Shown: positions 4,107 through 19,662, counted from the stretch's first letter. The stretch: DNA of 64,000 bases from an uncultured Ignavibacteriales bacterium (GCA_964464605.1 CAYXJN010000006.1:62001-126000), one strand, 5' to 3'. The notes: a model not told the origin generated them from the letters alone. Made by a program: numbers and translations.

Positions 4107-5228
4107 TCAACTTTCTATCATCTCGACGTTTGCGCGGGGGACAATCGCTTTGGAACCGTCATCAAACTGTACTTCCAGAATACGGGCCATTGATTCGGAC
4201 TCCAGTTTCTGCAGCGGAGAGGGGAGGTTTGTTACCGAACCAAGTTTGCCGAAGTGCGGATGGCGGATAACACGAATCGGTGAACCGATTCCTATTCCCT
4301 GAATTTCAGAGGGTTTATCATCAATTTGACCGCTCGAAGTTAATGGAATGACTACTTCCGGACGAATAACGCCGGCGCGAATCTGCGTAGCGCCATTGAT
4401 GCAAGCCATTTGTCCTTCCTGACGTTTCAACAGATCGAATGTCTTTTTAGCCATACTGATTTTGCCGAAGCCTTCGGTTACGACAAGAGTAAGGCCGATA
4501 TCTTCATTACCGGTGATTGCAACACCGATATCGTAGCCAAGAAAGTCGCGCAAATCTTTGTCGTCGAATCCGCCGACAACGATTCCTTTTACACCGACCT
4601 TAATCGCTTTTTTCATCGCAGCAGCAGTTACAAGAGAGCCGCCGACGATTACCAAGCCTTTGAGGGCATCGGTAATAAACTGTTCATCCAACACCGTGTG
4701 GTTATCAGGCGTGACGACTTTGAGCGTTCCGTAGGTTTCTCCGCCAATTCCGAAAATCCCCTGCATGAAGGCAGCCTCGGTTGCAACAACGACCCCTTCG
4801 TTCGGAATAACCTCGACAACTTTTCCCTTAACGTATGCTTTCACTTCAACAGGAACCGGATACCCGCGCTGGAGCACCTGACCGGTGATGTGAGAAATCG
4901 ATTCAATAGTGCCGTTGATAGTGGCGTGTGCCTCGCTTTTGAAGATGCTGATAAAACCCTTTTTGAGCGCAATCAGGTCACCTTCTTTAATCGCATCACC
5001 TTCTTTTTTGAGCATGCAATGCTCTAAATCTTCCGGGGGGAGGCCAAGCTTGTTCGCCACATTGAGCGGAACGACCGGGCCGGGGAGGTGCGTACGGGCG
5101 ACGGCATCATCCGGATTGACCATATCTCCCACTTTGACGAGTACATCCCCTTTAAGCGGAAGAATACGGGATTTTTTAACGAGTCGTTTGTCTGTAACTT
5201 TTAATCCGGGTGTATACGCGTGTGCCAT
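4107..5228 (-). CDS. Conserved hypothetical soluble protein with barrel-sandwich-hybrid-like motifs and a C-terminal KOW/SH3-like segment; in the GlmL-like operon
   Basis: 373 aa ORF. Motifs VLVKVGDMV, KKEGDAIKEGDLIA and ATINGTIESI resemble RnfC/NqrA N-terminal hybrid motifs. Gly-rich alpha/beta core. C-terminal GIGSPIRVIRHPHFGKLGSV. Confidence 0.7.
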   Translation of the reverse strand: MAHAYTPGLKVTDKRLVKKSRILPLKGDVLVKVGDMVNPDDAVARTHLPGPVVPLNVANKLGLPPEDLEHCMLKKEGDAIKEGDLIALKKGFISIFKSEAHATINGTIESISHITGQVLQRGYPVPVEVKAYVKGKVVEVIPNEGVVVATEAAFMQGIFGIGGETYGTLKVVTPDNHTVLDEQFITDALKGLVIVGGSLVTAAAMKKAIKVGVKGIVVGGFDDKDLRDFLGYDIGVAITGNEDIGLTLVVTEGFGKISMAKKTFDLLKRQEGQMACINGATQIRAGVIRPEVVIPLTSSGQIDDKPSEIQGIGIGSPIRVIRHPHFGKLGSVTNLPSPLQKLESESMARILEVQFDDGSKAIVPRANVEMIES

Positions 5229-5245
5229 TATTGTCCCTTATCTGA

Positions 5246-6031
5246 TTATTTTCTGGGTCGGTGCATGCGCTTGCGACGCATCCGCATTACTAAAATCAAA
5301 ATAATGATAAACAGCCCGCCGCCAAAGAAGGGAAGTGTGCGTTTGACGGTAGAGTCGTCACTCTTCGGCATTTCCCGGTTTTGGACATCTTCGGCAACTT
5401 TCAGTTCCTGTTTGGGGGCAGCCGTTTCGACATTATCCGTCGAAAGGGACTGGGCGATCTGCTCGAACGTGGGCAGGGTCACGCTGAACAGGGAATCAGG
5501 GGCGTAGAAAAAGAAATTGGCGATTCCGTGCTTATAGAATTTCATGATATACGCATGCTTTTTTATCAGCATGTTTTCTTCAACCACATCGCTGATGACT
5601 GTGACAATTTTTGAAGCAGCGTCATAAGCAGGTTCGTCGGTTTTTTGCTGTGCGTTCAAATCGGAAACGGGGAAGTAGCGAACATTTTTGCCGAATATCT
5701 GGCTCAAAGCATGCAGAACAGAATCGATCTGTTTGTCGGTGAGTTCACCGACTGAGTCGACAGTCAGAATGCCGTACACGCCGTCGAAAAAAGGAATAGT
5801 GCTGCTGTCGGCGAAGGCGGCATCGTAATCGAGCACCGATTCTCCGGCCTGATGCATTTGCAGAAAGGCGTCGACGGTCGTGTAATCGATCTGTTTCCAT
5901 CCGTCGGGATACGTAATATGAAATTTCCCTTTTGGAGAAACATACGTTCCGCAGAGCGCGGAGGAACCGGTAGCAAGTAAAGCCGCGAATACGGCAATGC
6001 AGAGCGTAGAAATACCTGTTTTTGTTTTCAT
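5246..6031 (-). CDS. Hypothetical exported protein with a C-terminal membrane anchor (PsbP/DUF1795-like N-terminal motif)
   Basis: Start ATG 6031 overlaps the upstream stop (TAATG). Signal peptide, YVSPKGKFHITYPDGWKQI motif, C-terminal TM helix followed by RMRRKRMHRPRK. Confidence 0.7.
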   Translation of the reverse strand: MKTKTGISTLCIAVFAALLATGSSALCGTYVSPKGKFHITYPDGWKQIDYTTVDAFLQMHQAGESVLDYDAAFADSSTIPFFDGVYGILTVDSVGELTDKQIDSVLHALSQIFGKNVRYFPVSDLNAQQKTDEPAYDAASKIVTVISDVVEENMLIKKHAYIMKFYKHGIANFFFYAPDSLFSVTLPTFEQIAQSLSTDNVETAAPKQELKVAEDVQNREMPKSDDSTVKRTLPFFGGGLFIIILILVMRMRRKRMHRPRK

Positions 6032-7884
6032 TAGGCTAACAAGGAATCCTGAGGATAAATATCCAATTCTTTCATCCATTTTTTCAAATGATTCACACGG
6101 TCTGCATCCGGCAATGAAGAGAGGTCAAACGGACGGCCGCGACCGTCAAGAATAATGCCGACTACACCGCCGTGCACTTCTTTGCTGACCGGATTACCTT
6201 TTCCGGCGCCCATGTCAAATTCTTTGGTCGGTTCAAACGTTGCTTTGGCAGTTACCGGTAATCCGTTCGACTGCAGACCAAGATCGAACTTTTTCATTTC
6301 CAGATAATTCAAATTGCCACTGACCGTGCCGCCCGGCAACTCGATCGTGTACTTCATAATCGGTCCCTGCTTTTTGGTCGTGCCAGTTGGGGCTACGCAG
6401 GTACCAAGATGAATGAGACAATCTTTTTCGAACACTTCCGTTGCCGCTTGCGGCTGAACTTCGGTGAGTACGCCTAATTGCGGCATCATGAAGATTGAAT
6501 CGACCGCCAAACGGGTGACGCCTTCCGGTAAGAAAGAGTCGATCATCATAAGCGCGGACTGCTGACGGCGCGGCGCGTGGGAGAGCACACCGCCGGAGCC
6601 GATGAGCATATTCAGCGACATCATATTGACGATCGTACCGCCGGAGGCTGTCTGTTCGAAGGCATCAGCAATCGTACGCTGCTGCTGAACACCTTTGAGT
6701 TCCGTGGCGAAGTTTTTGTGCTGAATAAAGGCAAGGCGAAGCGCCTCTTTGGCAATGGCCTGTTCAAAAATCAATTCTTCAAGTGACTGTGGAATGGTAG
6801 TAGGTCGAACCATTTTGTTTTTGACACGGTTGCGCAAGTCACGTTCATCCATGAGGAATGGAACCCAACGCATGACCATCGGCAAGGTCGCTTCTGCGAA
6901 TACATTTGAAATAGAGTACGACATTCCCAAGTTTGCTGACACGGTACGGTTGAAGACCGGCGTTTTGGCATCGGGGCGGAAAACAGAGAATACGTCGGTC
7001 GTAGCGCCGCCGATATCGACACCGACTGCCTCAATATTATAGCGGTCAGCAATAGTCTGGATAATTAATCCGACCGCGCCGGGGGTCGGCATGATCGGGG
7101 CATCGGTCCATGACATCAGTTTTTTATATCCGGGTGCCTGTGCCATCACGTGTTCCATGAACATTTCATGAATTTCATCGCGAGCGGGGCCAAGATTTTC
7201 CCGTTCCAGTACCGGACGAAGATTCGGTACGATTTTCAAATCGACTTTGCCGTCGAGCGTTTCTTTCACCATTGGAGCGGCATCCTTGTTGCCGGCAAAA
7301 ATAACCGGTAGTTCATATCCGGAACCCAAGCGCGGGCGAGGGTCGGCCGCCGAAACGAGTTCGGCAATTTCAACCACGTGCGTGGTGGTGCCGCCGTCGA
7401 TACCGCCGGATAATAAAATCATATCCGGGCGCAAGCGACGAATGCGTTCGATCTGCTGGTGAGGGAGGCGTTTGTCGTTTGAGGAAATTACGTCCATCAC
7501 GATCGCACCGGCGCCGAGGGCAGCACGTTCGGCTGATTCGGCGGTCATCGATTTGACCACTCCGGCGACCATCATTTGTAGTCCGCCACCGGCTGATGAG
7601 GTAGAAATATAAACATCGGTACCGACATTCCCCTGAGCCGGACGAATGAAGTTTCCTTTTTCATCCAAAAGCTTGCGGCCGGAAAGTTCTTCCAGTTCGG
7701 CGACGGCGTTCAGTACGCCCATGGTAACATCTTCAAACGGCGCTTCAACCGTGGTCGGCGCTTCGCCGCGATGGGTTTGGCGATATTCCCCGTTTACGTA
7801 TTGAATCATGATTGCTTTGGTCGTGGTCGAGCCGCAGTCTGTCGCGACGATAATCTTGATATCTTCAGGCTTTAGTTTTGTCAT
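6031..7884 (-). CDS. GlmL/MutL (glutamate mutase L)-family actin-like ASKHA ATPase
   Basis: Phosphate-1 motif DCGSTTTK, SSAGGGL, AERAALGAGA, PDMILLSGGIDGG, IMPTPGAV, phosphate-2 motif DIGGATTDVFS, NRTVSANLGMSYS, adenosine motif IGSGGVLSH. 617 aa. Confidence 0.85.
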   Translation of the reverse strand: MTKLKPEDIKIIVATDCGSTTTKAIMIQYVNGEYRQTHRGEAPTTVEAPFEDVTMGVLNAVAELEELSGRKLLDEKGNFIRPAQGNVGTDVYISTSSAGGGLQMMVAGVVKSMTAESAERAALGAGAIVMDVISSNDKRLPHQQIERIRRLRPDMILLSGGIDGGTTTHVVEIAELVSAADPRPRLGSGYELPVIFAGNKDAAPMVKETLDGKVDLKIVPNLRPVLERENLGPARDEIHEMFMEHVMAQAPGYKKLMSWTDAPIMPTPGAVGLIIQTIADRYNIEAVGVDIGGATTDVFSVFRPDAKTPVFNRTVSANLGMSYSISNVFAEATLPMVMRWVPFLMDERDLRNRVKNKMVRPTTIPQSLEELIFEQAIAKEALRLAFIQHKNFATELKGVQQQRTIADAFEQTASGGTIVNMMSLNMLIGSGGVLSHAPRRQQSALMMIDSFLPEGVTRLAVDSIFMMPQLGVLTEVQPQAATEVFEKDCLIHLGTCVAPTGTTKKQGPIMKYTIELPGGTVSGNLNYLEMKKFDLGLQSNGLPVTAKATFEPTKEFDMGAGKGNPVSKEVHGGVVGIILDGRGRPFDLSSLPDADRVNHLKKWMKELDIYPQDSLLA

Positions 7885-7939
7885 CGTTTTTTCCTATAGT
7901 GTTCCCAAAAATGGCGGTACAATTGCCGCTGAGTCGAGA

Positions 7940-7968
7940 ATTATACCAGCCGGTCGTGAAGTTGTAAA
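7940..7968 (-). promoter_or_regulatory. Sigma70 promoter of the GlmL-like operon
   Basis: Minus strand TTTACA (7968-7963), 17 nt spacer, TATAAT (7945-7940) with an extended -10 TG. Confidence 0.7.
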
Positions 7969-8050
7969 CAGGGAAATGATAGCGCTTTAATGACAATGCG
8001 TTACATAACGATATTTGCTTTGGTCGTATTTGCTGCGCTGAGTTTTCCGC

Positions 8051-8079
8051 TTGACCTGTTCTTTCGTCCGCTGTACATT
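8051..8079 (+). promoter_or_regulatory. Sigma70 promoter of the membrane-cassette array
   Basis: TTGACC (8051-8056), 17 nt spacer, TACATT (8074-8079); divergent from the promoter at 7940-7968. Confidence 0.55.
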
Positions 8080-8259
8080 CGCGCCGGTGCAAGTCAGTGG
8101 GAATGTGTAAGTTCTCACCGCGCAGGTGGATTGTGGACCCTTGCATCATCTTGATTAAACAAAATGAACGGCTTGTCCGTTTACCGGGAAGTGACACCTA
8201 CCAATGTATTGGCCGGTCGTGCCTCCCCGCCAATAGATGACTGAAGAGAGAGGACTGTT

Positions 8260-9288
8260 TTGACCCTCGAAAGACCGGCAAACATCGATGCTGCCCTCCG
8301 TACTCTCATGCTCGGGCTATTGGCATTGCTGTTTTCCCTCTTTTTTTCCGTTTCTCTTTCCGCACAAACTGATTCCGTACAAGACACACTTACTGCGACC
8401 GTGCAGTCGATAGTCGATTCTACAATGGCGGCCGACTCTGCTGTGGCGGCAACACAGGCCGCGCCGGAAACGACAATGACCGGCTCGCAGGCTGAGGCCG
8501 AGCGAGTTAAATCCTCCTGGTTCGATACTAAACGATTGAATGTGTTCATCTGGATTGTGCTGTTATCCGCCGTGATTATTTTCTACATCAATCACGCGAA
8601 ATCAGGAAAACCGATTTACATCCGTAAAATGGCGGGGCTGGAAGCTATCGACGAAGCGGTCGGCCGCGCGACAGAAATGGGAAGAAAAATTTATTTCGTT
8701 CCCGGTATTCAGGATATGAATGATGTGCAGACAATCGCCGCGATTGCTATTCTGGGACGGGTCTCATCGCTGGCCGCCGAGTACGAAACCTGGCTTGAAG
8801 TGCCGAACTCCAAGTCGCTCGTGATGATTACCGCGACAGAAACGATGAAAGAAGCATATTCCCGCGCCGGTCGGCCCGACTCATTTCAGGAATCACAAGT
8901 TTACTTTATTACCGATGAACAGTTCGCGTATGCGGCCGCGCTTGACGGGATGATCGTGCGTGAACGGCCGGCCACCATATTGTATATGGGGGCGTTTTAT
9001 GCCGAATCACTGATTCTTTCCGAAGTCGGTAACTCCACCGGAGCGATTCAGATTGCGGGAACAGCGGAAGCAACGCAGTTACCGTTCTTTGTCGCCGCCT
9101 GCGACTATGTGCTTTTGGGTGAAGAATTATTTGCTGCCTCTGCGTATCTGTCCAAAGAGCCGCGCCAGCTTGGTTCATTAAAAGGACAGGATATGGGGAA
9201 AGCATTTTTTATTGTCGCGATGGTTATCGGTGTCATCGGGGTAACCTTCGGCTTGTTTGACATCAGCGACTGGTTTAAGGCGAATTAA
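8260..9288 (+). CDS. Cassette 1 subunit A: DUF6754-like membrane protein
   Basis: TTG start with AGAGG RBS. Signal peptide, Thr/Ala/Ser linker, TM, motifs AGLEAIDEAVGRATEMG and QLPFFVAACDYVLLGEELFAASAYL, C-terminal TM. Paralog of 11550 and 15175. DUF assignment from memory. Confidence 0.75.
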   Translation: MTLERPANIDAALRTLMLGLLALLFSLFFSVSLSAQTDSVQDTLTATVQSIVDSTMAADSAVAATQAAPETTMTGSQAEAERVKSSWFDTKRLNVFIWIVLLSAVIIFYINHAKSGKPIYIRKMAGLEAIDEAVGRATEMGRKIYFVPGIQDMNDVQTIAAIAILGRVSSLAAEYETWLEVPNSKSLVMITATETMKEAYSRAGRPDSFQESQVYFITDEQFAYAAALDGMIVRERPATILYMGAFYAESLILSEVGNSTGAIQIAGTAEATQLPFFVAACDYVLLGEELFAASAYLSKEPRQLGSLKGQDMGKAFFIVAMVIGVIGVTFGLFDISDWFKAN

Positions 9289-9293
9289 GGAAT

Positions 9294-9968
9294 ATGAGAA
9301 GAGAAATACCGATATTAATTACGACCATTGCCGGGCTGGTGTTTGCGCTTTCGTATTTCATTCCGAAGCCGCCGTTCAGCAATGCGGAAACGATTTTTGG
9401 CGACTGGGTGTCGATTGTGCAGTCATTTGCCGTCTGGCTTGGCGTGTTGAATCTGTTTGTCGTATTGGGCGACCGGATTACCCGCCGCAAAGACCACTGG
9501 CAGTATGACATCATTATCCTCGGTTGTTTGGTGGCGACCTTAGTGGTCGGATTCTGGAGCGGATTCGCCGGAATGAATGCCGAACCGGCCTATTCCTTCC
9601 GTGATCCGGGAACCGCCTTCGACTGGATTTTTACCAATATTTTTACGCCGCTTGGTGCGACGATGTTTGCCATTCTTGCCTTTTATGTCGCATCGGCATC
9701 ATACCGCGCGTTCCGCGCTCGTAACACCGAAGCGACATTATTATTGATAGCATCAATGTTCGTTATGGGTGGCCGTGTGCCGCTTTTCGATACGATTTTC
9801 AGCCCGCTTTTAGGCTATCCATTCTTCAGTCAATTCGCAGGATGGATTATGCAGTATCCTGTTACCGGTGGTCAGCGCGCGATTGCTATCGGTATCGCGC
9901 TCGGTATTGTTTCCAGTTCACTCCGTGTGATTCTCGGTATTGAACGTTCCCACGTGGGAGGGAAATAA
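9294..9968 (+). CDS. Cassette 1 subunit B: uncharacterised polytopic membrane protein
   Basis: About 6 hydrophobic helices; MRREIP, LAFYVASASYRAFRA, QRAIAIGIALG...LRVILGIER. Paralog of 12777 and 16447. Confidence 0.75.
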   Translation: MRREIPILITTIAGLVFALSYFIPKPPFSNAETIFGDWVSIVQSFAVWLGVLNLFVVLGDRITRRKDHWQYDIIILGCLVATLVVGFWSGFAGMNAEPAYSFRDPGTAFDWIFTNIFTPLGATMFAILAFYVASASYRAFRARNTEATLLLIASMFVMGGRVPLFDTIFSPLLGYPFFSQFAGWIMQYPVTGGQRAIAIGIALGIVSSSLRVILGIERSHVGGK

Positions 9969-10873
9969 TGCTGTCGACGATTATGTTGGTAGTCATGGGG
10001 TTGGTTGGATTGTCGCTTATCTATGTCCTCTACCGCACGATTAACGGTCGCCCGGTCGAGCGGCGTATTGTGTTTGCTTACATCGGTGTCGCCGTTATCG
10101 GATCGTTCTTTGTCAAAATGCCCGCGCCGCTTCCGGAAACGCGGGAAGTCAGCCGGTTATATGAAACACTGAAAGGTGTGCCGGATGGCTCGAAGATTTT
10201 AATGTCATTTGATTATGACCCGCAGTCCGCGCCGGAATTACAGCCAATGGCGATTGCCTTTATTCGCTACGCGCTGAAACATGATTTCAAAATTATCATC
10301 ATGGGACTTTGGCCAGCCGGACCACAGCAGGCATATCAGGCCATAGAAGTAGCGAAAACAGATCCCGAAATCGCGGCGATGAATTTGGAATATGGGGTTG
10401 ATTATGTAAACCTCGGCTTCCAGTCCGGAAATGAATTCGTTATTCAGGCGATCGGGTCGAGTTTCAAGCAGATGTTCCCGCAGGATGACCGCCGTACCCC
10501 GTACGATCAGATTCCGATTTTACAAGGGGTAACCAATTTGCGCGATGTCGCGCTGGTGATGAACCTGAGTTCCGGTAAACCGGGTACCCGTGAATGGGTG
10601 CAAATCGGTGTCGACCGGTTTAATGTCAAGCTAATTGCCGGCAACACGGCAGTGCAGGCGCCGGAAATGTATCCGTTTTTGCGCGCAGGGCAGTTGCAGG
10701 GTTTGATGGGTGGTATGACCGGTGCGGCTGAATTTGAAAAGACAGTCAATCAGGCAGGTAAAGCGACAACGTTTGTATTGTCGCAGATGTTCGCCCACGC
10801 GACCGTGATTGCTTTTATCATTATCGGTAACGTCGCGTATTTTGTATCGAGAAGACGGGAGAAGAAAAAATGA
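9968..10873 (+). CDS. Cassette 1 subunit C: membrane-anchored protein with a large probable periplasmic domain
   Basis: N-terminal TMs, SFDYDP..PELQPM, GVDYVNLG, YPF..GQLQGLMGG..GAAEFE, C-terminal TM plus basic tail. TAATG coupling to subunit B. Paralog of 13444 and 17110. Confidence 0.75.
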   Translation: MLSTIMLVVMGLVGLSLIYVLYRTINGRPVERRIVFAYIGVAVIGSFFVKMPAPLPETREVSRLYETLKGVPDGSKILMSFDYDPQSAPELQPMAIAFIRYALKHDFKIIIMGLWPAGPQQAYQAIEVAKTDPEIAAMNLEYGVDYVNLGFQSGNEFVIQAIGSSFKQMFPQDDRRTPYDQIPILQGVTNLRDVALVMNLSSGKPGTREWVQIGVDRFNVKLIAGNTAVQAPEMYPFLRAGQLQGLMGGMTGAAEFEKTVNQAGKATTFVLSQMFAHATVIAFIIIGNVAYFVSRRREKKK

Positions 10874-11520
10874 GCGGCGACTTCGGCGTTTGGGTAGCGG
10901 CGCTTTTGACGGTTGGGATTCTCTCTTTCTTGTATAAGGATAATCCGTTCTATAAGATATGTGAGTCGATCTTTGTCGGCGTTTCAGCCGGCTATTGGGC
11001 GATTATCTATTTCTTCGACAGCCTGCAAAAGAAGATGTGGGAAGGAATTTTCCCGACAACCGGCGCTGCCGCGGACTACTGGCTTATCGGCGGCGCGATT
11101 TTGGGCATCATGATGTTGTTTAGACTATCCTCAAAAGCCGGATGGATAGCCCGTTGGCCGCTTTCGTTTATTGTCGGAGCGACCGCCGGTTTATATATGC
11201 TCCTCTTTTTCGTCTCCAACGCGCTTAATCAGGTTGCATCAACGATTGTACCGTTGATTGTTCACAATACTGAAGGTGCGATCGACTGGGTAGCTTCTAT
11301 CGGAACGACTATTATCGCCATCGCGACCATTTGTGGGTTGATTTATTTCTTCTTCTCGAAAGAACATAAAGGCTGGTTCGGACGCACCGCCCGGTTTGGT
11401 ACCTGGTTTTTGATGATTACCTTCGGAGCGGCGTTCGGCTATACGGTGATGAGCCGTATGTCGTTGTTGATCGGCCGTATGGATTTCTTATTCAGCGTCT
11501 GGCTCGGATTAACCCGATAA
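10870..11520 (+). CDS. Cassette 1 subunit D: uncharacterised polytopic membrane protein
   Basis: SFLYKDNPFY, RWPL, YFFFSKEHKG, FGAAFGYTVMSR. ATGA overlap with subunit C. Paralog of 14358 and 17986. Confidence 0.75.
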   Translation: MSGDFGVWVAALLTVGILSFLYKDNPFYKICESIFVGVSAGYWAIIYFFDSLQKKMWEGIFPTTGAAADYWLIGGAILGIMMLFRLSSKAGWIARWPLSFIVGATAGLYMLLFFVSNALNQVASTIVPLIVHNTEGAIDWVASIGTTIIAIATICGLIYFFFSKEHKGWFGRTARFGTWFLMITFGAAFGYTVMSRMSLLIGRMDFLFSVWLGLTR

Positions 11521-11549
11521 TGCGTTGTATCCGACCATAGGTAGCAGTT

Positions 11550-12773
11550 ATGCGGACACGTTGTTATACTGCCACCGCTGTTTTTGCTCTTCTGTCATAT
11601 TCTCTTTGTTTTTCCCAATCATCTGAACCGGTAACTGATAGCGTGCAAGCACCAATGCAGATTGTAGTAGCTGCACCGACATCTGTGTTGGCTGAAGATA
11701 TGAATTACGATGTCGGCAACCGGATACGCTTGACCTGGGTTCCTTCCATCGATGACCAACCGATGGATAGCCGGGTGACCGGATACAAAATTTACCGATA
11801 CGCGAATGGAAGCGATTCGGCGGTAACGGCGAATGTTCCGGCCGGCGTAGCAACCTATGTGGATGAAGGGCTCAATCGGGAATCATCATATACATATGTA
11901 GTCGCAACGCTTTCAAGCAATGCGGAGTTTCCCTCAATTCGTACGCAGGCAATTACGCCGGAACGGGAATGGATTAATTTTGATCGTACGTCGTTATTTA
12001 TTATCGCATTGATTTTAGGCGGTGCGATTATCTATTTCATCGAAAGCGCCCGAAAAGGGAAGAAGCTGTTCGTTCGTAAAATCGCCGGACTTGAGGCAAT
12101 CGATGATGCTATCGGCCGCGCTACCGAAATGGGGCGTCCGATTCTGTTCGTTCCCGGTATTCAGGATATGAATGAAGTAGAAACGGTCGCGGGGTTGACC
12201 ATTCTCGGCCGTGTTGCGCGAGTTGTGGCCGATTACGACACCAAAATTTTCGTACCGACCTCACGATCGCTCGTTATGACTGCCGCGCGGGAAACGATTA
12301 AGTCGGCGTATCAAACCGCAGGCAGGGCAGATGCATACAGTGATGAAATGTCCTCCTATATCACCGATGAACAATTCGGTTATGTGGCGGCAGTGAATGG
12401 ACGGATGATGCGTGAAAAGCCTGCCACCTGCTTTTATATGGGTGTGTTTTTTGCCGAATCATTGATGCTTGCCGAAACCGGACATTCAGTCGGCGCGATT
12501 CAGATTGCCGGAACCGCCAGACCGATTCAGATACCTTTTTTTGTCGCGGCTTGTGACTTCACGCTTATCGGTGAAGAATTGTTTGCGGCCTCGGCGTATC
12601 TGTCTGGCGAACCGAAGCAGCTTGGATCACTCAAAGGGCAGGATGTCGGCAAGGCGGTCGCGCTGGTCATTATCACCGTCGGCACGATTGCCGTCACTGC
12701 GACCACGCTGTGGGATGTCCCTTGGTTGAAAACGTTTCTTCACAATCTAACGTCTGTTTTTTCCTCACGGTAA
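11550..12773 (+). CDS. Cassette 2 subunit A: DUF6754-like membrane protein with an N-terminal fibronectin-III-like domain
   Basis: Signal peptide; APTSV..IRLTW..GYKIYR..YVDEGL..YTYVV (FN3 pattern); then the same core as 8260. Confidence 0.78.
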   Translation: MRTRCYTATAVFALLSYSLCFSQSSEPVTDSVQAPMQIVVAAPTSVLAEDMNYDVGNRIRLTWVPSIDDQPMDSRVTGYKIYRYANGSDSAVTANVPAGVATYVDEGLNRESSYTYVVATLSSNAEFPSIRTQAITPEREWINFDRTSLFIIALILGGAIIYFIESARKGKKLFVRKIAGLEAIDDAIGRATEMGRPILFVPGIQDMNEVETVAGLTILGRVARVVADYDTKIFVPTSRSLVMTAARETIKSAYQTAGRADAYSDEMSSYITDEQFGYVAAVNGRMMREKPATCFYMGVFFAESLMLAETGHSVGAIQIAGTARPIQIPFFVAACDFTLIGEELFAASAYLSGEPKQLGSLKGQDVGKAVALVIITVGTIAVTATTLWDVPWLKTFLHNLTSVFSSR

Positions 12774-12776
12774 ACC

Positions 12777-13451
12777 ATGCGAAGACAAATCCCGCTTCTT
12801 ATTACCTCTTGTATCGGAATTTTTTTGATTCTCGCGGTGTTTATTCCGCCATGGGAAGGGGCGGGGGAAACCTCGACGGTATTCTTCGACATTATTGCTG
12901 TTTTCGCTTTCTTTTTAGGCGGCGGCAATCTTGTGCGTATTCATGGTGCAAAATTGTTTGAGCGCAAAGAGGGATGGCTATTTTCGGTTGTTACGTTAGC
13001 CGGATTTGCTGTCATGTTATTCGCCGGCCTGTTTAAAATCGGCAGCACTGGAATAGCCGCGCCGGTCGATGAGGCTGGTTCTCTTTTCGCCATGATGTAT
13101 ACCTCTGTTTTTTCGCCGTTAGGTGCGACGATGTATTCACTATTGGCTTTCTTTGTTGCGTCGGCCTCGTATCGCGCCTTTCGTGCAAAAAATCGCGAAG
13201 CGACCATTCTATTGTTAGCTGCGGTAATTATTCTTTTAGGTCGCACACCTTTCGGAACGGTACTAACTGCATGGATACCGGAAAGTTTTTCGATATTTGA
13301 ACTGCCGAATTTGGCCGTCTGGATTATGAAATCGCCGAACCTTGCCGGACAACGAGCAATCTTAGTTGGTATCGGTCTCGGTGTGATTGCAATGTCGTTA
13401 CGCATTATTCTCGGCATCGAGCGTGGGTATTTGGGGGATGACCGTGGATAA
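12777..13451 (+). CDS. Cassette 2 subunit B: polytopic membrane protein
   Basis: MRRQIP, LAFFVASASYRAFRA, QRAILVGIGLG..LRIILGIER. Confidence 0.75.
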   Translation: MRRQIPLLITSCIGIFLILAVFIPPWEGAGETSTVFFDIIAVFAFFLGGGNLVRIHGAKLFERKEGWLFSVVTLAGFAVMLFAGLFKIGSTGIAAPVDEAGSLFAMMYTSVFSPLGATMYSLLAFFVASASYRAFRAKNREATILLLAAVIILLGRTPFGTVLTAWIPESFSIFELPNLAVWIMKSPNLAGQRAILVGIGLGVIAMSLRIILGIERGYLGDDRG

Positions 13452-14361
13452 CATCGGCATCATTCTCTCCGTTGTCGGCATTGTTGCCGGACTCAGTTTT
13501 CTGGCATATCGCTCTTTCAAAGGAAAAGAGGTCGACCGCCGAGTTATTTTCCTGTTTATCTTCTGCGCCGTTGCTTTGCCGGTGTTGTTTAAGAAAACGG
13601 TTCCGGAAATGGCGAGCGATATCGTGAAGAATGTCTACGACAAAGTTGAATCACTTCCGCCCGGCTCCAAGATTTTGATTTCATTTGATTATGATCCGGC
13701 TATGGCGCCTGAGGTGCAGCCGATGGCGGATATGTTCGTTCGTCATGCCTTCACCAAGGGACACAAAGTTGTGTTCATGTCGCTCTGGGCGACGGGACAA
13801 TCATTGTTGCATCCGACTATCGAGCGGATAGTCACCGGCGAGTTTCCGAATATGAAATACGGCGTCGACTATGTAACCCTCGGTTACAAAGCGGGGAATG
13901 AGGGTGTGCTCAATGTTATCGTGAGCAATATGCGCAAAATGTTTCCTACCGATATTAACGGTACAACGCTTGATGCTTTACCGCTAATGACAGGTATCAA
14001 ATCCTGCGCCGACTTCGATTGCGTGTTAACGGTCGGTGGTGGTAATCCCGGCACCAAAGAATGGGTGCTGTTCGTCGGTGATGTTGCCCATGTGCCTATT
14101 GCTACCGGTGTCGCGGCGGTCGTTGCGCCTGCCATGTATCCGTATTATCCGCAACAGCTGGTCGGTATTTTGGGCGGAGTGAAGGGAGCATCGGAGTACG
14201 AATCACAGTTCAAACAGCAATATCGCCCGGAAGCCGATATGCCGACTCCGGCGATGAAAACGATGTGGCCGCAAACGTGGGCGCATATGGTCATTATCGC
14301 CTTTATCATTATTGGTAATATTTCTTACTTTGCCAGCCGGAAAAAAGGGAACCAGTCGTGA
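13444..14361 (+). CDS. Cassette 2 subunit C: membrane-anchored periplasmic-domain protein
   Basis: Likely GTG start at 13444 after GGGGGA (alternative ATG 13438). SFDYDP..PEVQPM, GVDYVTLG, QLVGILGG..GASEYE, AH..IIAFIIIGN. Confidence 0.72.
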   Translation: MDNIGIILSVVGIVAGLSFLAYRSFKGKEVDRRVIFLFIFCAVALPVLFKKTVPEMASDIVKNVYDKVESLPPGSKILISFDYDPAMAPEVQPMADMFVRHAFTKGHKVVFMSLWATGQSLLHPTIERIVTGEFPNMKYGVDYVTLGYKAGNEGVLNVIVSNMRKMFPTDINGTTLDALPLMTGIKSCADFDCVLTVGGGNPGTKEWVLFVGDVAHVPIATGVAAVVAPAMYPYYPQQLVGILGGVKGASEYESQFKQQYRPEADMPTPAMKTMWPQTWAHMVIIAFIIIGNISYFASRKKGNQS

Positions 14362-15170
14362 GCCGGTCATTACTTTTTACCAGCATCGGTATCGGTGTGC
14401 TGTTCATTGTCAGCATGTTCGCAAGTGCGAGTTCCGCTTTGGAAGGAACATCGCCGATAGTGCAGGGCTTTCTGGTTACGCTTGCTGCATTTTTGACGCT
14501 CTGTATTTTCTCGTTCCTCTATAAAGACAATCCGTTCTACAAGTTTGCCGAACATCTGTTTGTCGGTGTGTCGGCTGCATATTGGATGTGTCAGGGATTC
14601 TGGTCGACCATTGTCGGTAATCTGATTCCGCGCGTTTCTGAAAGTCTTTCCTCATTTTTTCAGGTGCCGTATCAGGGGGGAGATGTTGAAAGCTATGCGT
14701 ACTTCATTCCGATTATCCTCGGCATTCTTCTGTTAATGCGACTGACCAACAAGCATGGCTGGCTCGGTCGCTGGCCGTTGGCATTTGTAGTCGGGACAAC
14801 TGCCGGGTTGAATTTTGTTCGTTATCTTCGTTCTGATTTTATCGAGCAGATCTCTGCAACATTCGTGCCGCTCGTGGTCAGTTGGAACGGGTACGGTGAT
14901 TTTTTCTCGAATCTCTCACTCAATGCCGGCGGACAGTTTGCGATGATGCTGACCAACTGGGTTATTTTCGCCGGGGTCTTTTGCGGAATCATTTATTTCT
15001 TCTTCTCGAAGGAACACACCGGCTGGTTTGGCCGCGCCTCGCAGTTCGGGATATGGATAATGATGCTGACCTTCGGTGCATCGTTCGGTTATACGGTTAT
15101 GGGGCGAATATCGCTCTTGGTCGGCCGGATAACTTTTTTGTTTCGCGATTGGCTCGGATTGATTAACTAA
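14358..15170 (+). CDS. Cassette 2 subunit D: polytopic membrane protein
   Basis: SFLYKDNPFY, RWPL, YFFFSKEHTG, FGASFGYTVMGR; GTGA overlap with subunit C. Confidence 0.75.
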   Translation: MSRSLLFTSIGIGVLFIVSMFASASSALEGTSPIVQGFLVTLAAFLTLCIFSFLYKDNPFYKFAEHLFVGVSAAYWMCQGFWSTIVGNLIPRVSESLSSFFQVPYQGGDVESYAYFIPIILGILLLMRLTNKHGWLGRWPLAFVVGTTAGLNFVRYLRSDFIEQISATFVPLVVSWNGYGDFFSNLSLNAGGQFAMMLTNWVIFAGVFCGIIYFFFSKEHTGWFGRASQFGIWIMMLTFGASFGYTVMGRISLLVGRITFLFRDWLGLIN

Positions 15171-15174
15171 GGGA

Positions 15175-16434
15175 ATGCGAATGACCCGTCAATTCAGATT
15201 TGCAGCAGTTTTGTTCAGTTTTTTCATTAGTGCTGCGTTGGTCTTTGCGCAGGATTCCCCCGATACAACTGCTATCATTGCTGATACTACTGTTGTTACT
15301 CCGCAATCTACGGTCGCCACTCCGCAGCCGGTGACAAGCGTAGCGGTGAATGACAGTCCAGATGATGAAGGACATTCCATAACCATTACTTGGACTAAAT
15401 CAGCAGATGATGGCTCGGGTGCCGCGAGCGTTCTTATGTATGAAGTGTTTCGCTCAGACTCGCCAAATGGACCGTTTGAAAAAGTGGGCGCGTCTCCTTC
15501 AGGTGAGCAGCGTTTCGTTAATTCATCGGGACGTGACTCCAGCAATGCACTGTATGTAGCCAATGAACGCGCATATTATTATCGGGTAGATGCTGTCACG
15601 GCACAAACTGATATCCGTTCTGAATCGCAAATAGTCGGCCCAGCCGAAGCTTCCGGACAATGGTTTAATGTGGGAAGAGCGACGGTGTTTACCTCTGTTC
15701 TAATTTTTACGTTGTTTACGCTGATCTTTATAGCAAAAGCAAAAAAGGGACATGAGTTGTATGTGCGGCCATTGGCAGGAATCGAAGCCGTCGATGAAGC
15801 TATCGGTCGTGCCACCGAAATGGGGAAGCCGATTTTATATGTCATGGGATTGGGGACAGCACAGGATATCGCAACGATTGCGTCATTTACTATTCTTTCC
15901 CGTGTCGCCAAAAAAGTTGCTGAATACCAGACTGATTTGATTGTTCCTTGCTATGACCCAATTGTGTTTACGGTTGCGCAAGAAATTGTGCAGTCTTCTT
16001 TCTTGGATGCTGGTCGTCCGGACGCCTATAGATCGGATATGGTGTATTTTGTCACACAGGCGCAGTTTGCCTATGTCGCCGCGGTTAACGGCACGATGGT
16101 ACGCGTGAAACCGGCGACGAATTTGTATCTTGGTAAGTTCTATGCCGAGTCACTCATGCTTGCTGAAACCGGTTCGGTAACCGGCTCGATTCAGATTTCC
16201 GGAACGGATGAAGTCGCGCAGATACCATTTTTCGTAGTTGCCTGCGATTATACGCTGATCGGTGAAGAATTGTATGCCGCCTCCGCTTATCTTGGACGTG
16301 AACCGGTATTGCTCGGCTCGCTAAAAGGACAAGATTGGGCGAAAGGGCTGCTTATTCTTTGTGCAATTGCCGGGATCATCGCTGCCGAACTGCAGTTCGG
16401 TTGGTTTGTTGACCTGTTTAGGGTATTGAATTAA
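15175..16434 (+). CDS. Cassette 3 subunit A: DUF6754-like membrane protein with an FN3-like domain
   Basis: Signal peptide; ITITWTKS..YEVFRS..YYYRVDAV (FN3 pattern); AGIEAVDEAIGRATEMG; QIPFFVVACDYTLIGEELYAASAYL. Confidence 0.78.
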   Translation: MRMTRQFRFAAVLFSFFISAALVFAQDSPDTTAIIADTTVVTPQSTVATPQPVTSVAVNDSPDDEGHSITITWTKSADDGSGAASVLMYEVFRSDSPNGPFEKVGASPSGEQRFVNSSGRDSSNALYVANERAYYYRVDAVTAQTDIRSESQIVGPAEASGQWFNVGRATVFTSVLIFTLFTLIFIAKAKKGHELYVRPLAGIEAVDEAIGRATEMGKPILYVMGLGTAQDIATIASFTILSRVAKKVAEYQTDLIVPCYDPIVFTVAQEIVQSSFLDAGRPDAYRSDMVYFVTQAQFAYVAAVNGTMVRVKPATNLYLGKFYAESLMLAETGSVTGSIQISGTDEVAQIPFFVVACDYTLIGEELYAASAYLGREPVLLGSLKGQDWAKGLLILCAIAGIIAAELQFGWFVDLFRVLN

Positions 16435-16446
16435 GGTAATGATAGC

Positions 16447-17106
16447 ATGAGAAGGCAAATACCGCTCGCACTAGTAACGTTCTTCGGAGTCTTGATGGCT
16501 CTGCAGTACTTTGTTCCACATACCGCCTCGCAATTGCTGAACGAGCGTTTGCTCGATTGGGTGGTGATTATCGGTATTTTTGCATTGGCTGTTGGTATTG
16601 GTTCGCTCATCAGCGTTTCAATCGATAAGATAAAATTGAAGCAGCCGAACTGGCAGTATTCATATATCACGCTTGCCGGTCTGGCGGCAATGATAGTTGC
16701 AGGATTTATCGGTCAGAAAGATGGTGAATGGGGCGTGTACTTCATGTCACCGGAAGGGCTACAAAACCCGGTGTTCGACGGTATTTTCCGTTATGTCATT
16801 ACGCCGATTCAATCGTCTACGTTTGCACTTTTGGCTTTCTTTATCGCTTCTGCTGCATATCGCGCATTTCGCGCACGTAATGTACTGGCGACGCTGCTGT
16901 TGATTTCGGCATTGCTTGTGATGCTTCGTTTTAATCCGTTTTTGGGGCCGCTTACCGGCTTTATGGATCAAGCCGCGAACTGGCTTTTGAACGTTCCGAA
17001 TCTGGCGGCTAAGCGGGCGATCATTATCGGTATCGGTCTTGGTATGGTAGCGACATCGCTGAAAGTCGTGCTCGGTATAGAACGCGGCTTTATGGGGAAG
17101 AGTTAA
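16447..17106 (+). CDS. Cassette 3 subunit B: polytopic membrane protein
   Basis: MRRQIP, LAFFIASAAYRAFRA, KRAIIIGIGLG..LKVVLGIER. Confidence 0.75.
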   Translation: MRRQIPLALVTFFGVLMALQYFVPHTASQLLNERLLDWVVIIGIFALAVGIGSLISVSIDKIKLKQPNWQYSYITLAGLAAMIVAGFIGQKDGEWGVYFMSPEGLQNPVFDGIFRYVITPIQSSTFALLAFFIASAAYRAFRARNVLATLLLISALLVMLRFNPFLGPLTGFMDQAANWLLNVPNLAAKRAIIIGIGLGMVATSLKVVLGIERGFMGKS

Positions 17107-17109
17107 GCT

Positions 17110-17973
17110 ATGAATATCTTTGAACGGATGATGTCACTTGACCGGCGCTGGATTTTTCTTTTTGTCGCGGTGGTATGTATAGCGACCTACTATGCGAAAT
17201 TTGCAGTCCCGCTTTTCGTATCACCGGAAGTAAAAAGTATCTACGATAAGGTAGAGTCGTTACGAGAAGGGGATCTGATGCTCCTTTCGATCGACTATGA
17301 TCCGAACGCGCTGGCAGAATTACATCCGATGACCTATGCGATTTTGGAACAGGCGTTTCGCAGAGGTGCCCGAGTTATAACGCTCACGCTCTCACAGAAT
17401 GGCGCCGGTATGGCGGAGCAGGCAGTGAAAGATGTCGTCGATTCGGTCAAAGTAGCGAAGATATATAACGGTGTTGAATATCCCGGCAGAGAATTAGTCA
17501 AGGGAATTGATTATACCTTCTTAGGATATAAACCGTATCCGGCATTGGTAATTTTAGGTATGGGGCAGAATTTTAGAATTCAGTATCCGACCGACTATTA
17601 CGGTACCCCATTAGATTCTATTCCGATCATGCGTGGCGTTGCTAACTATGATCAACTGAGAACTGTCATTAGTATCACCGGCTCAAACGTTGCTGATTAT
17701 TGGATTTCTTACGGTCAAGGGCGGTACAATTTCCCGCTGGCACTGGGATTGACCGGCGTAAGTGCATCTGATTTTTATCCGTTCTTGAACTCTGGTCAGT
17801 TGTATGGACTCATGGGCGGGTTGCTCGGTGCTGCGCAGTACGAACAGCTTGCCGATAATCCGGGACCGGCAAAAGATGGTATGCGTATACAGGTGTTCGC
17901 GCACCTGGTAATAATCGGATTTATCGTGCTCGGCAATATTGGATTTTTCCTGTCGAGACGGCGGAACCAATAA
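17110..17973 (+). CDS. Cassette 3 subunit C: membrane-anchored periplasmic-domain protein
   Basis: DRRWIF TM, SIDYDP..ELHPM, GIDYTFLG, YPF..GQLYGLMGG..GAAQYE, AH..IIGFIVLGN, basic tail. Confidence 0.75.
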   Translation: MNIFERMMSLDRRWIFLFVAVVCIATYYAKFAVPLFVSPEVKSIYDKVESLREGDLMLLSIDYDPNALAELHPMTYAILEQAFRRGARVITLTLSQNGAGMAEQAVKDVVDSVKVAKIYNGVEYPGRELVKGIDYTFLGYKPYPALVILGMGQNFRIQYPTDYYGTPLDSIPIMRGVANYDQLRTVISITGSNVADYWISYGQGRYNFPLALGLTGVSASDFYPFLNSGQLYGLMGGLLGAAQYEQLADNPGPAKDGMRIQVFAHLVIIGFIVLGNIGFFLSRRRNQ

Positions 17974-17985
17974 GGAAGCAGGCAG

Positions 17986-18750
17986 ATGGAGTTTACTACC
18001 TTTCTTTGGACAACTCTCAGCGCGTTTCTCACGCTGGCTACATTTTCCTTTTTGTATCGTGACAATCCGTTTTATCGCATAGCGGAACATCTGGTGGTAG
18101 GAACGTCCGCCGGATACTTCGTCCTTATTCTCTGGCATAATAGTTTAGTGCCGAATATGCTCAACCGTATTCTGGAAGGGTCATGGTTGTATATCATCCC
18201 CGGTATTCTTGGTGCGATGATGTGGACTCGGTTTTCAAAGAACTATGCATGGATTTCCCGCTGGCCGCTGGGGATTTATGTCGGTATTGCCGCTGGTGTT
18301 GCCATACCGCTTGAAATGGCAAACCGTGTAAACAAACAGTTGGTGGCTGCGATGGTACCGATAAGCTGGGATAACTTTCTTTCATTCTTACCTACATCCG
18401 GTCTGTCGGATCTTATTGTTTTTACGGGAGCAATTGCTGCTCTTTGTTATTTCTTCTTTTCCAAAGCGCACACTGGTGCTTTCGGAGCCGTTGCTAAATA
18501 CGGTATCTGGATTTTGATGATCGGATTCGGAACATCGTTCGGATTTACCGTCATGGCTCGTATCTCCCTGTTCATTAATCGTATTCAATCGGTCGATCGG
18601 TGGGGGCAGGCAGCGTTTGATACCGCTAATCCGAATTATTCGTCGTTGTTTCCACTACTCTTCTGGATCGTTACCGCGTTGGTGGTAGGGTTTATTGTCG
18701 TTGAGATATACAAACATCTCAATGGCAAGAAGACCGTTGCTAATCAGTAA
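17986..18750 (+). CDS. Cassette 3 subunit D: polytopic membrane protein
   Basis: SFLYRDNPFY, RWPL, YFFFSKAHTG, FGTSFGFTVMAR; one extra C-terminal TM. Confidence 0.75.
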   Translation: MEFTTFLWTTLSAFLTLATFSFLYRDNPFYRIAEHLVVGTSAGYFVLILWHNSLVPNMLNRILEGSWLYIIPGILGAMMWTRFSKNYAWISRWPLGIYVGIAAGVAIPLEMANRVNKQLVAAMVPISWDNFLSFLPTSGLSDLIVFTGAIAALCYFFFSKAHTGAFGAVAKYGIWILMIGFGTSFGFTVMARISLFINRIQSVDRWGQAAFDTANPNYSSLFPLLFWIVTALVVGFIVVEIYKHLNGKKTVANQ

Positions 18751-19181: not shown

Positions 19182-19523
19182 ATGGCGTGGACTAGGAAGT
19201 CCGAATTGGGGAAAACCCCGGCCACATTCGTACCCGACTCAGAGGAATCTGAGGAACAATTTAAACTTTCGGCTGCTGAAAGGCGGCGAGAGTACCAACG
19301 GCGCTATTACCAAATGCACAAAGAAAAGGCAAAAGAATATCAGCGTCAGTACAACCTGACCCACAAGAAGAAGCTTCGTGGTGGTCGGGGAAAGAACGGT
19401 ATGTTGTCTCGCGATGCCGTTCGTTCCACATTCAATATGGCCGATATCATGCACTCTCCGGTTGAAAAGACCATTTGGATGCTCCAAAAGATCATTAACG
19501 GTGAACGCTTTTTCACGATGTAA
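19182..19523 (+). CDS. Small basic hypothetical protein, possibly nucleic-acid binding
   Basis: 113 aa, GAGG RBS, own promoter and terminator. Charged helix RRREYQRRYYQMHKEKAKEYQRQY and KKKLRGGRGK. Confidence 0.65.
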   Translation: MAWTRKSELGKTPATFVPDSEESEEQFKLSAAERRREYQRRYYQMHKEKAKEYQRQYNLTHKKKLRGGRGKNGMLSRDAVRSTFNMADIMHSPVEKTIWMLQKIINGERFFTM

Positions 19524-19546
19524 GGCTGCTAAGAACAAAGTAATTC

Positions 19547-19586
19547 AAGGCGATTAGCGCGAGTTTTTGCTCTAATCGCCTTTTCT
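19547..19586 (+). terminator. Rho-independent terminator
   Basis: 11-bp stem AAGGCGATTAG / CTAATCGCCTT followed by a T-rich tract. Confidence 0.7.
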
Positions 19587-19587
19587 A

Positions 19588-19616
19588 TTGCCAAGCACCG
19601 GTCTTTCCTGTACATT
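19588..19616 (+). promoter_or_regulatory. Sigma70-like promoter of ppdK
   Basis: TTGCCA, 17 nt spacer, TACATT. Its position argues against the ORF-track TTG start at 19588. Confidence 0.5.
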
Positions 19617-19662
19617 CCCCAAAAAATTCCTTAACTCATTAATAGGACAGAGGATATCCCAT

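Follow-up and report, generated by a model that had tools for sequence, protein, structure and literature searches.

Reactivases of B12-dependent enzymes are ATPases of the actin fold, which prise open a Rossmann-type subunit so that a spent cofactor can be exchanged. The reactivase of diol and glycerol dehydratases, DdrAB, combines an actin-fold ATPase with a swivelling beta/beta/alpha domain working on a Rossmann-type subunit. Within the MutL family (PF13941), GlmL is an accessory protein of the B12-dependent glutamate or ornithine mutase. This study investigated a GlmL-like ATPase locus at positions 4107-18750 of a 64,000-nucleotide stretch of DNA from an uncultured Ignavibacteriales bacterium (GCA_964464605.1, CAYXJN010000006.1:62001-126000; the whole stretch is hereafter called the window). 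The locus encodes the ATPase, a 373-aa partner protein, and 12 membrane proteins that form three four-gene cassettes (A, B, C, and D). The results strongly support that the ATPase pair and the ABCD cassettes belong together, and all parts very probably form one conserved membrane system. No part of this system has a known function.

An earlier note on this DNA had described two back-to-back units with opposed sigma-70-like sites in a 375-bp spacer, one encoding an intact actin-like ATPase at 6031-7884 and the other 12 membrane proteins in three ABCD cassettes. These claims were confirmed in position and paralogy: the open reading frames (ORFs) comprise a minus-strand trio at 4107-7884 and a plus-strand run of 12 genes at 8260-18750, in which A1 to D3 are three tandem A-B-C-D cassettes divergent from the ATPase unit. 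The genes of the plus-strand run are spaced by -14 to +29 nt (from 8260 or 8308 to 18750). The Pfam scan of 4107-18750 likewise agreed with the note in detecting no family of ATP-binding cassette (ABC) ATPases, tripartite ATP-independent periplasmic (TRAP) transporters, or the phosphotransferase system (PTS), and no ABC_tran or permease family was found among 16 proteins of the unit. The count of three cassettes holds in the window and not genome-wide. The source genome (2.8 Mb, rated 100% complete) contains five full A-B-C-D cassettes, with the additional ones at C3:13087-16112 and C2:37910-40774, together with one MutL-family gene and one copy of the partner. The proposed sharing of one soluble module among several membrane modules thus stands, at 1:5 in this genome and across its phylum.

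A profile of the five A proteins of the genome detected at least 620 stretches with such a gene among species-representative genomes; the locus comparisons below cover the best 76 of these. The A-B-C-D order was observed in 76 of the 76 loci, and seven apparent exceptions were cut contigs or a matter of ORF choice. The ATPase and/or the partner was encoded in 37 of the 76 loci and in 21 of the 44 in which at least 5 kb lay upstream of the first A gene. The closest loci were from metagenome-assembled genomes labelled Zixibacteriota, with some labelled Ignavibacteriales, and ATPase fragments named 'candidate division Zixibacteria' were 80-88% identical to the window ATPase; from this identity, the phylum of the window is probably Zixibacteriota. 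Further loci were found in Acidobacteriota, Planctomycetota (including Gimesia and Singulisphaera), WOR-3, Fermentibacteria/Aegiribacteria, Stahlbacteria, Neomarinimicrobiota, and 'Deltaproteobacteria'. The divergent layout with the anchored exported protein is common to six close relatives (L009, L013, L049, L053, L064, and L072). In Acidobacteriota, Planctomycetota, Fermentibacteria, and others, the genes run in one direction in the order n4-n2-ATPase-partner-A-B-C-D, and the partner stop codon overlaps the A start in two loci (L026 and L078). Both n2, a small protein (14/76 loci), and n4, a two-transmembrane (TM) protein (7/76 loci), recur upstream of the ATPase in other phyla and are without a Pfam family. 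They occur as a pair at C3:158736-159670 in the source genome and probably belong to the cytoplasmic module.

Co-occurrence was determined in 151 Planctomycetota genomes drawn evenly across the phylum; kinship inflates counts of this kind, and the pattern is nonetheless clear. DUF6754 (PF20539), the Pfam domain of A, was detected in 40 genomes, the partner in 38, and the ATPase in 38. The 38 partner-bearing genomes were the same as the 38 ATPase-bearing ones, all lay within the DUF6754-positive 40, and neither protein was found in the 111 DUF6754-negative genomes. Two DUF6754-positive genomes (G186 and G212) had no soluble pair, and the A genes of G212 were on a short contig. In at least 8 of the 38 genomes, the soluble genes were on another contig or hundreds of kilobases from A; the link between the ATPase pair and the cassettes is therefore not merely one of shared operons. 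Similarly, one WOR-3 genome has the partner approximately 70 kb from ABCD. Conversely, complete planctomycete genomes such as G193 and G215 have the genes for the ATPase, the partner, and A next to one another. Synteny across several phyla, together with this near-perfect co-occurrence, bears out the claim of the earlier note that the ATPase operon and ABCD belong together.

In the phylum of the window, DUF6754 was present in 121 of 121 sampled genomes, mostly in four to six copies, whereas the partner was found in 60 of 61 genomes, with a single match in 57 of the 60. We further analyzed 131 DUF6754 domains in a FastTree phylogeny (midpoint rooted, without support values, matches of <200 profile positions excluded). 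Cassette positions 1, 2, and 3 of the phylum formed three separate clades holding A1, A2, and A3; the array is thus old, with every paralogue retained. The paralogues in the three cassettes share only 33-58% identity (A 43-58%, B 38-41%, C 33-39%, and D 40-46%), and the duplications are old rather than recent.

The ATPase (617 aa) matches PF13941 from residue 12 to residue 489, covering profile positions 1-450 of 450. Its core is collinear with GlmL over residues 9-488, and a further 128 aa, likewise conserved, extend the protein at its C-terminus. Three motifs, DCGSTTTK, DIGGATTD, and GSGGVLSH, were invariant in 21 ATPase sequences; D16-K23, D290-D297, and G431-G432 correspond to the phosphate-1, phosphate-2, and adenosine motifs of the ASKHA (actin/Hsp70-fold) ATPases. 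Identity to 20 orthologues of several phyla was 62-86%, a level that points to a heavily constrained machine part. Nevertheless, the scores were below all three NCBIfam cut-offs (NF040745, 234.4 vs 475 bits; NF040744, 217.9 vs 600; TIGR01319, 170.1 vs 204). Comparison sequences for true GlmL were drawn from plasmid records, in which glmL sits between glmS and glmE (L091 and L092). The window ATPase was 29% identical to true GlmL of Peptoclostridium, whereas two true GlmLs of different phyla were 44% identical to each other. No Met_asp_mut_E (glutamate mutase E subunit) was found in the genome, which has one B12-binding domain only, unlinked to the ATPase, and the Pfam scan of the window detected no glmS, glmE, or other B12 mutase, in agreement with the earlier note. 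Because of the 29% identity, the scores below cut-off, and the missing mutase E subunit, we conclude from these comparisons that the ATPase, although homologous to GlmL across the whole core, is not GlmL and not a glutamate mutase helper. The sequence-profile search of PDB with the ATPase returned nothing below E 0.05.

The partner protein had been noted as a barrel-sandwich hybrid, a description that fits its N-terminal part and leaves out two further domains. The AlphaFold2 (AF2) model predicts an N-terminal barrel-sandwich hybrid, a central swivelling beta/beta/alpha domain, and a C-terminal KOW/SH3-like barrel. In VIA-align, residues 49-123 matched the N-domain of RnfC/NqrA with Z 7.3-7.8, and the RnfC_N match in Pfam was weak (E 0.0024, below cut-off). 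Residues 152-296 matched the His-domain of PTS Enzyme I (2wqd) with Z 9.7 and a root-mean-square deviation of 2.5 over 105 residues; further fold matches of the swivelling domain were Rifampin phosphotransferase (Z 8.7), RraA (8.4), and aconitase X (7.8). The C-terminal barrel matched NusG, Spt5, PsaE, NdhS, and PetP (Z 7-8.4). The sequence-profile search of PDB with the partner yielded nothing below E 0.05. Across phyla, the partner is 49-76% identical to the window protein, and among 25 partner sequences no His or Cys was invariant. In a motif alignment to Enzyme I, which serves as a lead only, the position of the phospho-His is occupied by Thr in most partners, occasionally by Ser, and in a single partner by His. 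Because the swivelling domain has no conserved His or Cys, the case for a classical phosphorelay or for group translocation is weakened. A lipoyl or biotinyl carrier role for the partner barrel was dropped, as conservation does not extend to the hairpin Lys.

In L035, L045, and 47 protein clusters (approximately 990-1005 aa), a single protein carries the ATPase with the partner attached at its C-terminus. Since the fusion occurs in many lineages, the two proteins almost certainly work as one unit. In a protein of 707 aa (P0043, a single member), the partner runs into the A signal peptide, Fn3, TM, and DUF6754; this is weak evidence, since the protein could be a genuine fusion or could result from loss of the stop codon where the two genes overlap. 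ATPase-partner fusions of a second, distant clade (P0049-P0100; 26-36% identical to the partner) were found in Cloacimonadota, Delongbacteria, Fermentibacteria, and others, and some of its proteins have extra helix-turn-helix or biotin/lipoyl-type Pfam hits. Weaker pairs of partner-like and ATPase-like proteins were present in five Planctomycetota genomes.

Table 1. Predicted features of the locus; positions are counted from the first letter of the window.
Feature	Position	Strand	Basis or remark
373-aa ATPase partner, three domains	4107..5228	-	AF2 model, predicted local distance difference test (pLDDT) 84
Anchored exported protein	5246..6031 (ORF to 6079)	-	hydrophobic segments at 26-44, 249-267
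GlmL-like ASKHA (actin/Hsp70-fold) ATPase, 617 aa	6031..7884	-	PF13941 E 1.1e-127
Putative divergent control region	7885..8307	.	opposed sigma-70-like sites
A1: signal peptide, short ectodomain, TM, cytoplasmic DUF6754, TM	8308..9288 (ORF open from TTG 8260)	+	PF20539 E 3.8e-118
B1: ~6 TM, conserved SYRAFRA(R/K)N motif	9294..9968	+	no family
C1: TM(s), ~230-aa soluble domain, TM, basic tail	9968..10873	+	no family
D1: ~6 TM, conserved LYKDNPFYK and FFSKEHxGxFG motifs	10870..11520	+	no family
A2: signal peptide, Fn3-like ectodomain, TM, DUF6754, TM	11550..12773	+	PF20539 E 1.8e-121
B2	12777..13451	+	phmmer vs B1 E 3.6e-45
C2	13438..14361 (ORF open from 13387, likely start ATG 13438)	+	phmmer vs C1 E 9.5e-66
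D2	14358..15170	+	phmmer vs D1 E 1.3e-54
A3: signal peptide, Fn3-like ectodomain, TM, DUF6754, TM	15175..16434	+	PF20539 E 6.2e-115
B3	16447..17106	+	phmmer vs B1 E 2.2e-43
C3	17110..17973	+	phmmer vs C1 E 1.3e-53
D3	17986..18750	+	phmmer vs D1 E 5.4e-39

The three A proteins of the window scored 383-405 bits against PF20539, for which the gathering cut-off is 27, and the genome contains five such matches (E 1e-100 to 1e-122). The AF2 model of A1 (pLDDT 84.5) has a Rossmann-like domain with six parallel strands, flanked by a TM helix on either side. The positive-inside rule would place this DUF6754 domain in the cytoplasm. The fold matches of the A model (Foldseek and VIA-align) were generic for Rossmann folds, with sirtuins, GT-B, PGK, and RCK tied at Z 9-10.6. 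A sirtuin or transhydrogenase dIII reading of DUF6754 was not adopted, as these matches were tied with unrelated folds and no sirtuin motifs were found. The invariant residues of DUF6754 come directly after strands 1, 4, 5, and 6, which in the model would be the usual ligand-binding edge of such folds. Across relatives, the N-terminal part of A is absent, Fn3, coiled-coil-rich, CBM-like, or approximately 1000 aa of beta-rich repeats; the sequence-profile search of PDB with A gave Fn3 hits only, on the N-terminal part of the profile.

Neither Pfam nor NCBIfam contains a family matching B, C, or D, and their PDB sequence-profile searches yielded nothing below E 0.05. A weak TMD0_ABC match was present in 13 of 40 B proteins (best E 8.7e-5), and the D family comprises 2763 clusters in a library at 50% identity. 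An ESM Atlas search returned unnamed clusters only. Hydropathy and charge place the invariant motifs of B and D in putative cytoplasmic loops, and charge suggests a periplasmic location for the soluble domain of C. Identity to the window protein across relatives was 40-56% for A, 37-61% for D, 34-58% for B, and 27-64% for C, the least conserved component. Insertions in D and in long A proteins are mostly without a Pfam family. Two B proteins carry inserts (L090:4594-5856 and L024:14938-16716), one an FHA domain in a putative cytoplasmic loop and the other FG-GAP repeats in an outer loop; the FHA domain hints at control by Ser/Thr phosphorylation in that lineage. We compared A, B, C, D, the partner, the ATPase, and the anchored protein with one another by using hhalign, and paralogy of the A and C soluble domains was dropped, since the probabilities among all parts were at most 3.8%. 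On the basis of the Pfam, NCBIfam, and PDB profile searches, the view that ABCD match no characterised complex is supported.

The anchored exported protein has an N-terminal signal or anchor and a C-terminal TM segment with a basic tail. Its start is likelier to be Met17 at 6031, overlapping the ATPase stop by one base. It matched no Pfam or NCBIfam family, its homologues were found in 6 of the 76 related loci, all of them the closest relatives listed above, and it is a lineage-specific insert between the ATPase and partner genes.

The spacer between the two units (7885-8259) measures 375 bp if A1 begins at TTG 8260; an ATG at 8308, directly before the signal peptide, is an equally probable start. 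On the minus strand, a sigma-70-like site (TTTACA-17-TATAAT, 7968..7940) matches 11 of 12 consensus positions and has a TG, and on the plus strand another (TTGACC-17-TACATT, 8051..8079) matches 9 of 12. Both putative promoters are consensus matches, and shuffled sequence contained 0.7 +/- 0.8 such sites compared with the two observed. Two minus-strand ORFs, 7865-8197 (110 aa) and 8181-8549 (122 aa), span the spacer; they are probably not genes, because they overlap the promoter-like sites and lack any match in Pfam or NCBIfam. The Rfam search for riboswitches and leaders gave no match in window positions 1-24000 at E up to 1 and none upstream of the system in seven related loci scanned. A cobalamin riboswitch (96 bits) was found in a planctomycete locus at L039:19527-19756, approximately 6 kb downstream of D and near the end of the sequence taken from that locus, and none beside the system in six other loci scanned or in the window.

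Downstream of the partner gene, by approximately 80 nt, lies an M1-family peptidase gene (1690-4026, counted from the Met before a signal-peptide-like N-terminus). In L009, L013, and L049, ExbB-ExbD-TonB genes occupy its place; the copies of these genes in the source genome are at C6:13406-15226. ExbB, ExbD, and TonB with a TonB-dependent receptor adjoin the system in WOR-3, Fermentibacteria, and close relatives (ExbB in 12/76 loci), and M28 and C1 peptidases are neighbours in 4/76 loci each. These TonB and peptidase neighbours hint at uptake. In three loci of Fermentibacteria/Aegiribacteria (L048, L074, and L079), glycine cleavage T and P genes are upstream on the same strand as n4-n2-ATPase-partner-ABCD, and a TonB-dependent receptor with ExbB/ExbD/TonB genes is downstream. 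In the window, a 113-aa gene and a pyruvate phosphate dikinase gene (19182-22455) follow the third cassette, separated from D3 by a 430-nt gap with a promoter-like site inside it. Downstream of the array in related loci, the dikinase was found in 16/76 and a small gene of the 113-aa type in 14/76, which is probably phylum-local synteny. Elsewhere in the source genome (C2:35410-43748), the fifth cassette (C2:37910-40774) has a putative ABC ATPase gene and a membrane-protein gene just downstream on the same strand and is divergent from genes resembling a sugar-type ABC importer; both of these readings rest on N-terminal sequence.

The PADLOC defence models matched 0 families among nine proteins tested. 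Because the system is also present in 121 of 121 genomes of its own phylum, the evidence argues against an anti-phage defence identity.

A single soluble pair, the ATPase and its partner, accompanies one to six ABCD modules. Conservation is highest in these two proteins and in the DUF6754 domain of A, and variation is concentrated in the N-terminal domain of A, in insertions of B and D, and in C overall; the predicted topology would place the conserved parts (DUF6754 and the loop motifs of B and D) toward the cytoplasm and the variable parts outward. A constant motor with variable outer parts resembles the energy-coupling factor (ECF) importers. For this reason, and on account of the TonB and peptidase neighbours, we put first, tentatively, the reading that the system is a modular ATP-coupled uptake transporter of the inner membrane, which would take up peptides or other polymer breakdown products. 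It would work in a manner akin to an ECF or shared-ATPase ABC importer while being built from unrelated proteins. The ATPase pair would dock on the conserved cytoplasmic face of A, B, and D, and ATP binding and hydrolysis would drive or gate a conformational change in whichever ABCD module is engaged; the modules would differ in what they handle outside the membrane. A wider claim would assign the system to a new class in which ATP energises membrane processes, separate from the ABC, P-type, and rotary ATPases; this is conceivable and rather unlikely. In that case, an actin/Hsp70-fold ATPase with a swivelling adaptor on a Rossmann-like domain would power transport or a transmembrane force, with one motor for up to five or six interchangeable membrane modules.

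Several observations weigh against an uptake transporter. By sequence, none of the components belongs to a known family of transporters, channels, or energy-coupling proteins, the weak TMD0_ABC match being the sole hint, and actin-fold ATPases are not known to power transport. The invariant residues of B and D would lie mostly in putative cytoplasmic loops, not in the membrane core. Outer domains of the Fn3, FG-GAP, coiled-coil, and CBM-like types occur more typically in adhesion or in the binding of large molecules than in importers of small solutes. The neighbouring TonB and peptidase genes are confined to certain lineages and could reflect local synteny. Finally, the conservation of the ATPase, which is comparable to that of MreB or DnaK, fits a many-contact machine or a filament as well as a transporter motor.

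Some of these points suit mechanotransmission, in which the cytoplasmic ATPase would act by way of the membrane helices to move the outer domains of A and C and so activate or position extracytoplasmic enzymes or envelope parts, without anything crossing the membrane. FtsEX and the MacB-type ABC systems are devices of this kind. The bitopic protein A joins a conserved domain in the cytoplasm to outer domains that vary greatly, the membrane cores of B and D contain few invariant residues, and candidate secreted peptidases recur beside the system (M1 here, and M28 and C1 as given above). However, no partner hydrolase is kept across phyla, two 6-TM proteins per module exceed the need of a lever, and the analogy with FtsEX and MacB is a tentative one; we consider this explanation unlikely.

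The Rossmann-like fold of DUF6754 and the apparent placement of its invariant residues at the strand ends also suit a reactivase-like chaperone, in which the ATPase pair opens this domain to load, exchange, or release a ligand and thereby turns an enzyme or channel in the membrane on and off. A swivelling domain is present in the partner, as it is in the large subunit of the diol dehydratase reactivase. Such a role is nevertheless quite improbable, as the cofactor or ligand is a hypothetical one, the fold matches of DUF6754 are generic, the glutamate mutase E subunit is missing from the genome, and reactivases are not known to serve membrane complexes.

A cytoskeletal or surface-adhesion role, in which ABCD would link actin-fold filaments to adhesive domains outside the cell and so serve shape, motility, or attachment, could draw on the cross-phylum identity of the ATPase, which is in the MreB range, and on the presence of Fn3, FG-GAP, and long outer domains. 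It has little to recommend it otherwise: the nearest relatives (GlmL and, weakly, the hydantoinase A family) are not known to form filaments, the ATPase always occurs with a dedicated, often fused, three-domain partner, and five paralogous modules in a 2.8-Mb genome suit substrates better than tracks. That the ATPase is an ordinary GlmL beside unrelated membrane genes is refuted, despite its PF13941 match over the full core and the naming of its relatives in public records, by the unmet cut-offs, the low identity, the missing mutase E subunit in a complete genome, the absence of the glmS-glmL-glmE arrangement, and the 38/38 co-occurrence with DUF6754.

Of the three outcomes that would have counted against the earlier note, none was observed: the co-occurrence holds, the ATPase lies outside the mutase-linked GlmL, and ABCD found no match. 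The system has a wide reach, as its at least 620 stretches come from many phyla and it occurs in every sampled genome of its own phylum. To this the present locus adds the three-cassette array, the 5:1 ratio across the phylum, the positional orthology of the cassettes, and the Planctomycetota co-occurrence table. If the ATPase does drive the membrane modules, cells would have a previously undescribed means of coupling ATP to a process in the membrane, and a large block of uncharacterised genes would be explained in little-studied phyla that are often found in sludge, sediments, and soils. Relatives of the ATPase are widely mislabelled 'glutamate mutase L' or 'methylaspartate mutase' in public records, and this label on the ATPase should be corrected.

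As a system, the locus has no described counterpart. DUF6754 is a Pfam family with a name only and no function attached. We found no paper mentioning DUF6754, PF20539, or PF13941, and searches of the literature on GlmL, actin-like proteins with membranes, and the glutamate mutase reactivase gave nothing on the present system among the papers listed. The partner shares the swivelling domain fold with PTS Enzyme I and other phosphoenolpyruvate (PEP)-utilising enzymes; in contrast to these, it has no conserved phospho-His, and the unit encodes no HPr, EIIA/B/C, or PEP-binding domain. With NqrA and RnfC, it shares the N-terminal barrel-sandwich hybrid, at a middling Z, and all are peripheral subunits of membrane complexes, presumably so here; however, no Rnf or Nqr Pfam family was found in A to D, and no Fe-S or flavin domain match.

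With GlmL/MutL (PF13941, NF040745, and TIGR01319), the window ATPase shares the actin-fold core and intact nucleotide-binding motifs; it differs in its 128-aa extension, its dedicated 373-aa partner, the lack of a glmS/glmE context, and its association with DUF6754 membrane cassettes. For the comparison with reactivases, the GlmL side was taken from the legend to Figure 4 of PMC4682846. No chain of a B12-enzyme reactivase (DdrAB, PduGH, or EutA) was among the fold matches listed for the partner, and no B12 client is encoded nearby. As in DdrAB, both module types are present here, split over the ATPase and the partner or fused; unlike in DdrAB, there is no B12 enzyme client, the partner adds the barrel-sandwich and KOW domains, and the presumed client is a domain of a membrane protein. 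In overall plan, the system can be compared with the ECF and shared-ATPase ABC importers. It differs from them in having no ABC ATPase, EcfT, or S-component family and in the actin fold of its ATPase, and it resembles them in that one conserved cytoplasmic module stands beside several divergent membrane modules, here at 1:5 and across the phylum as well.

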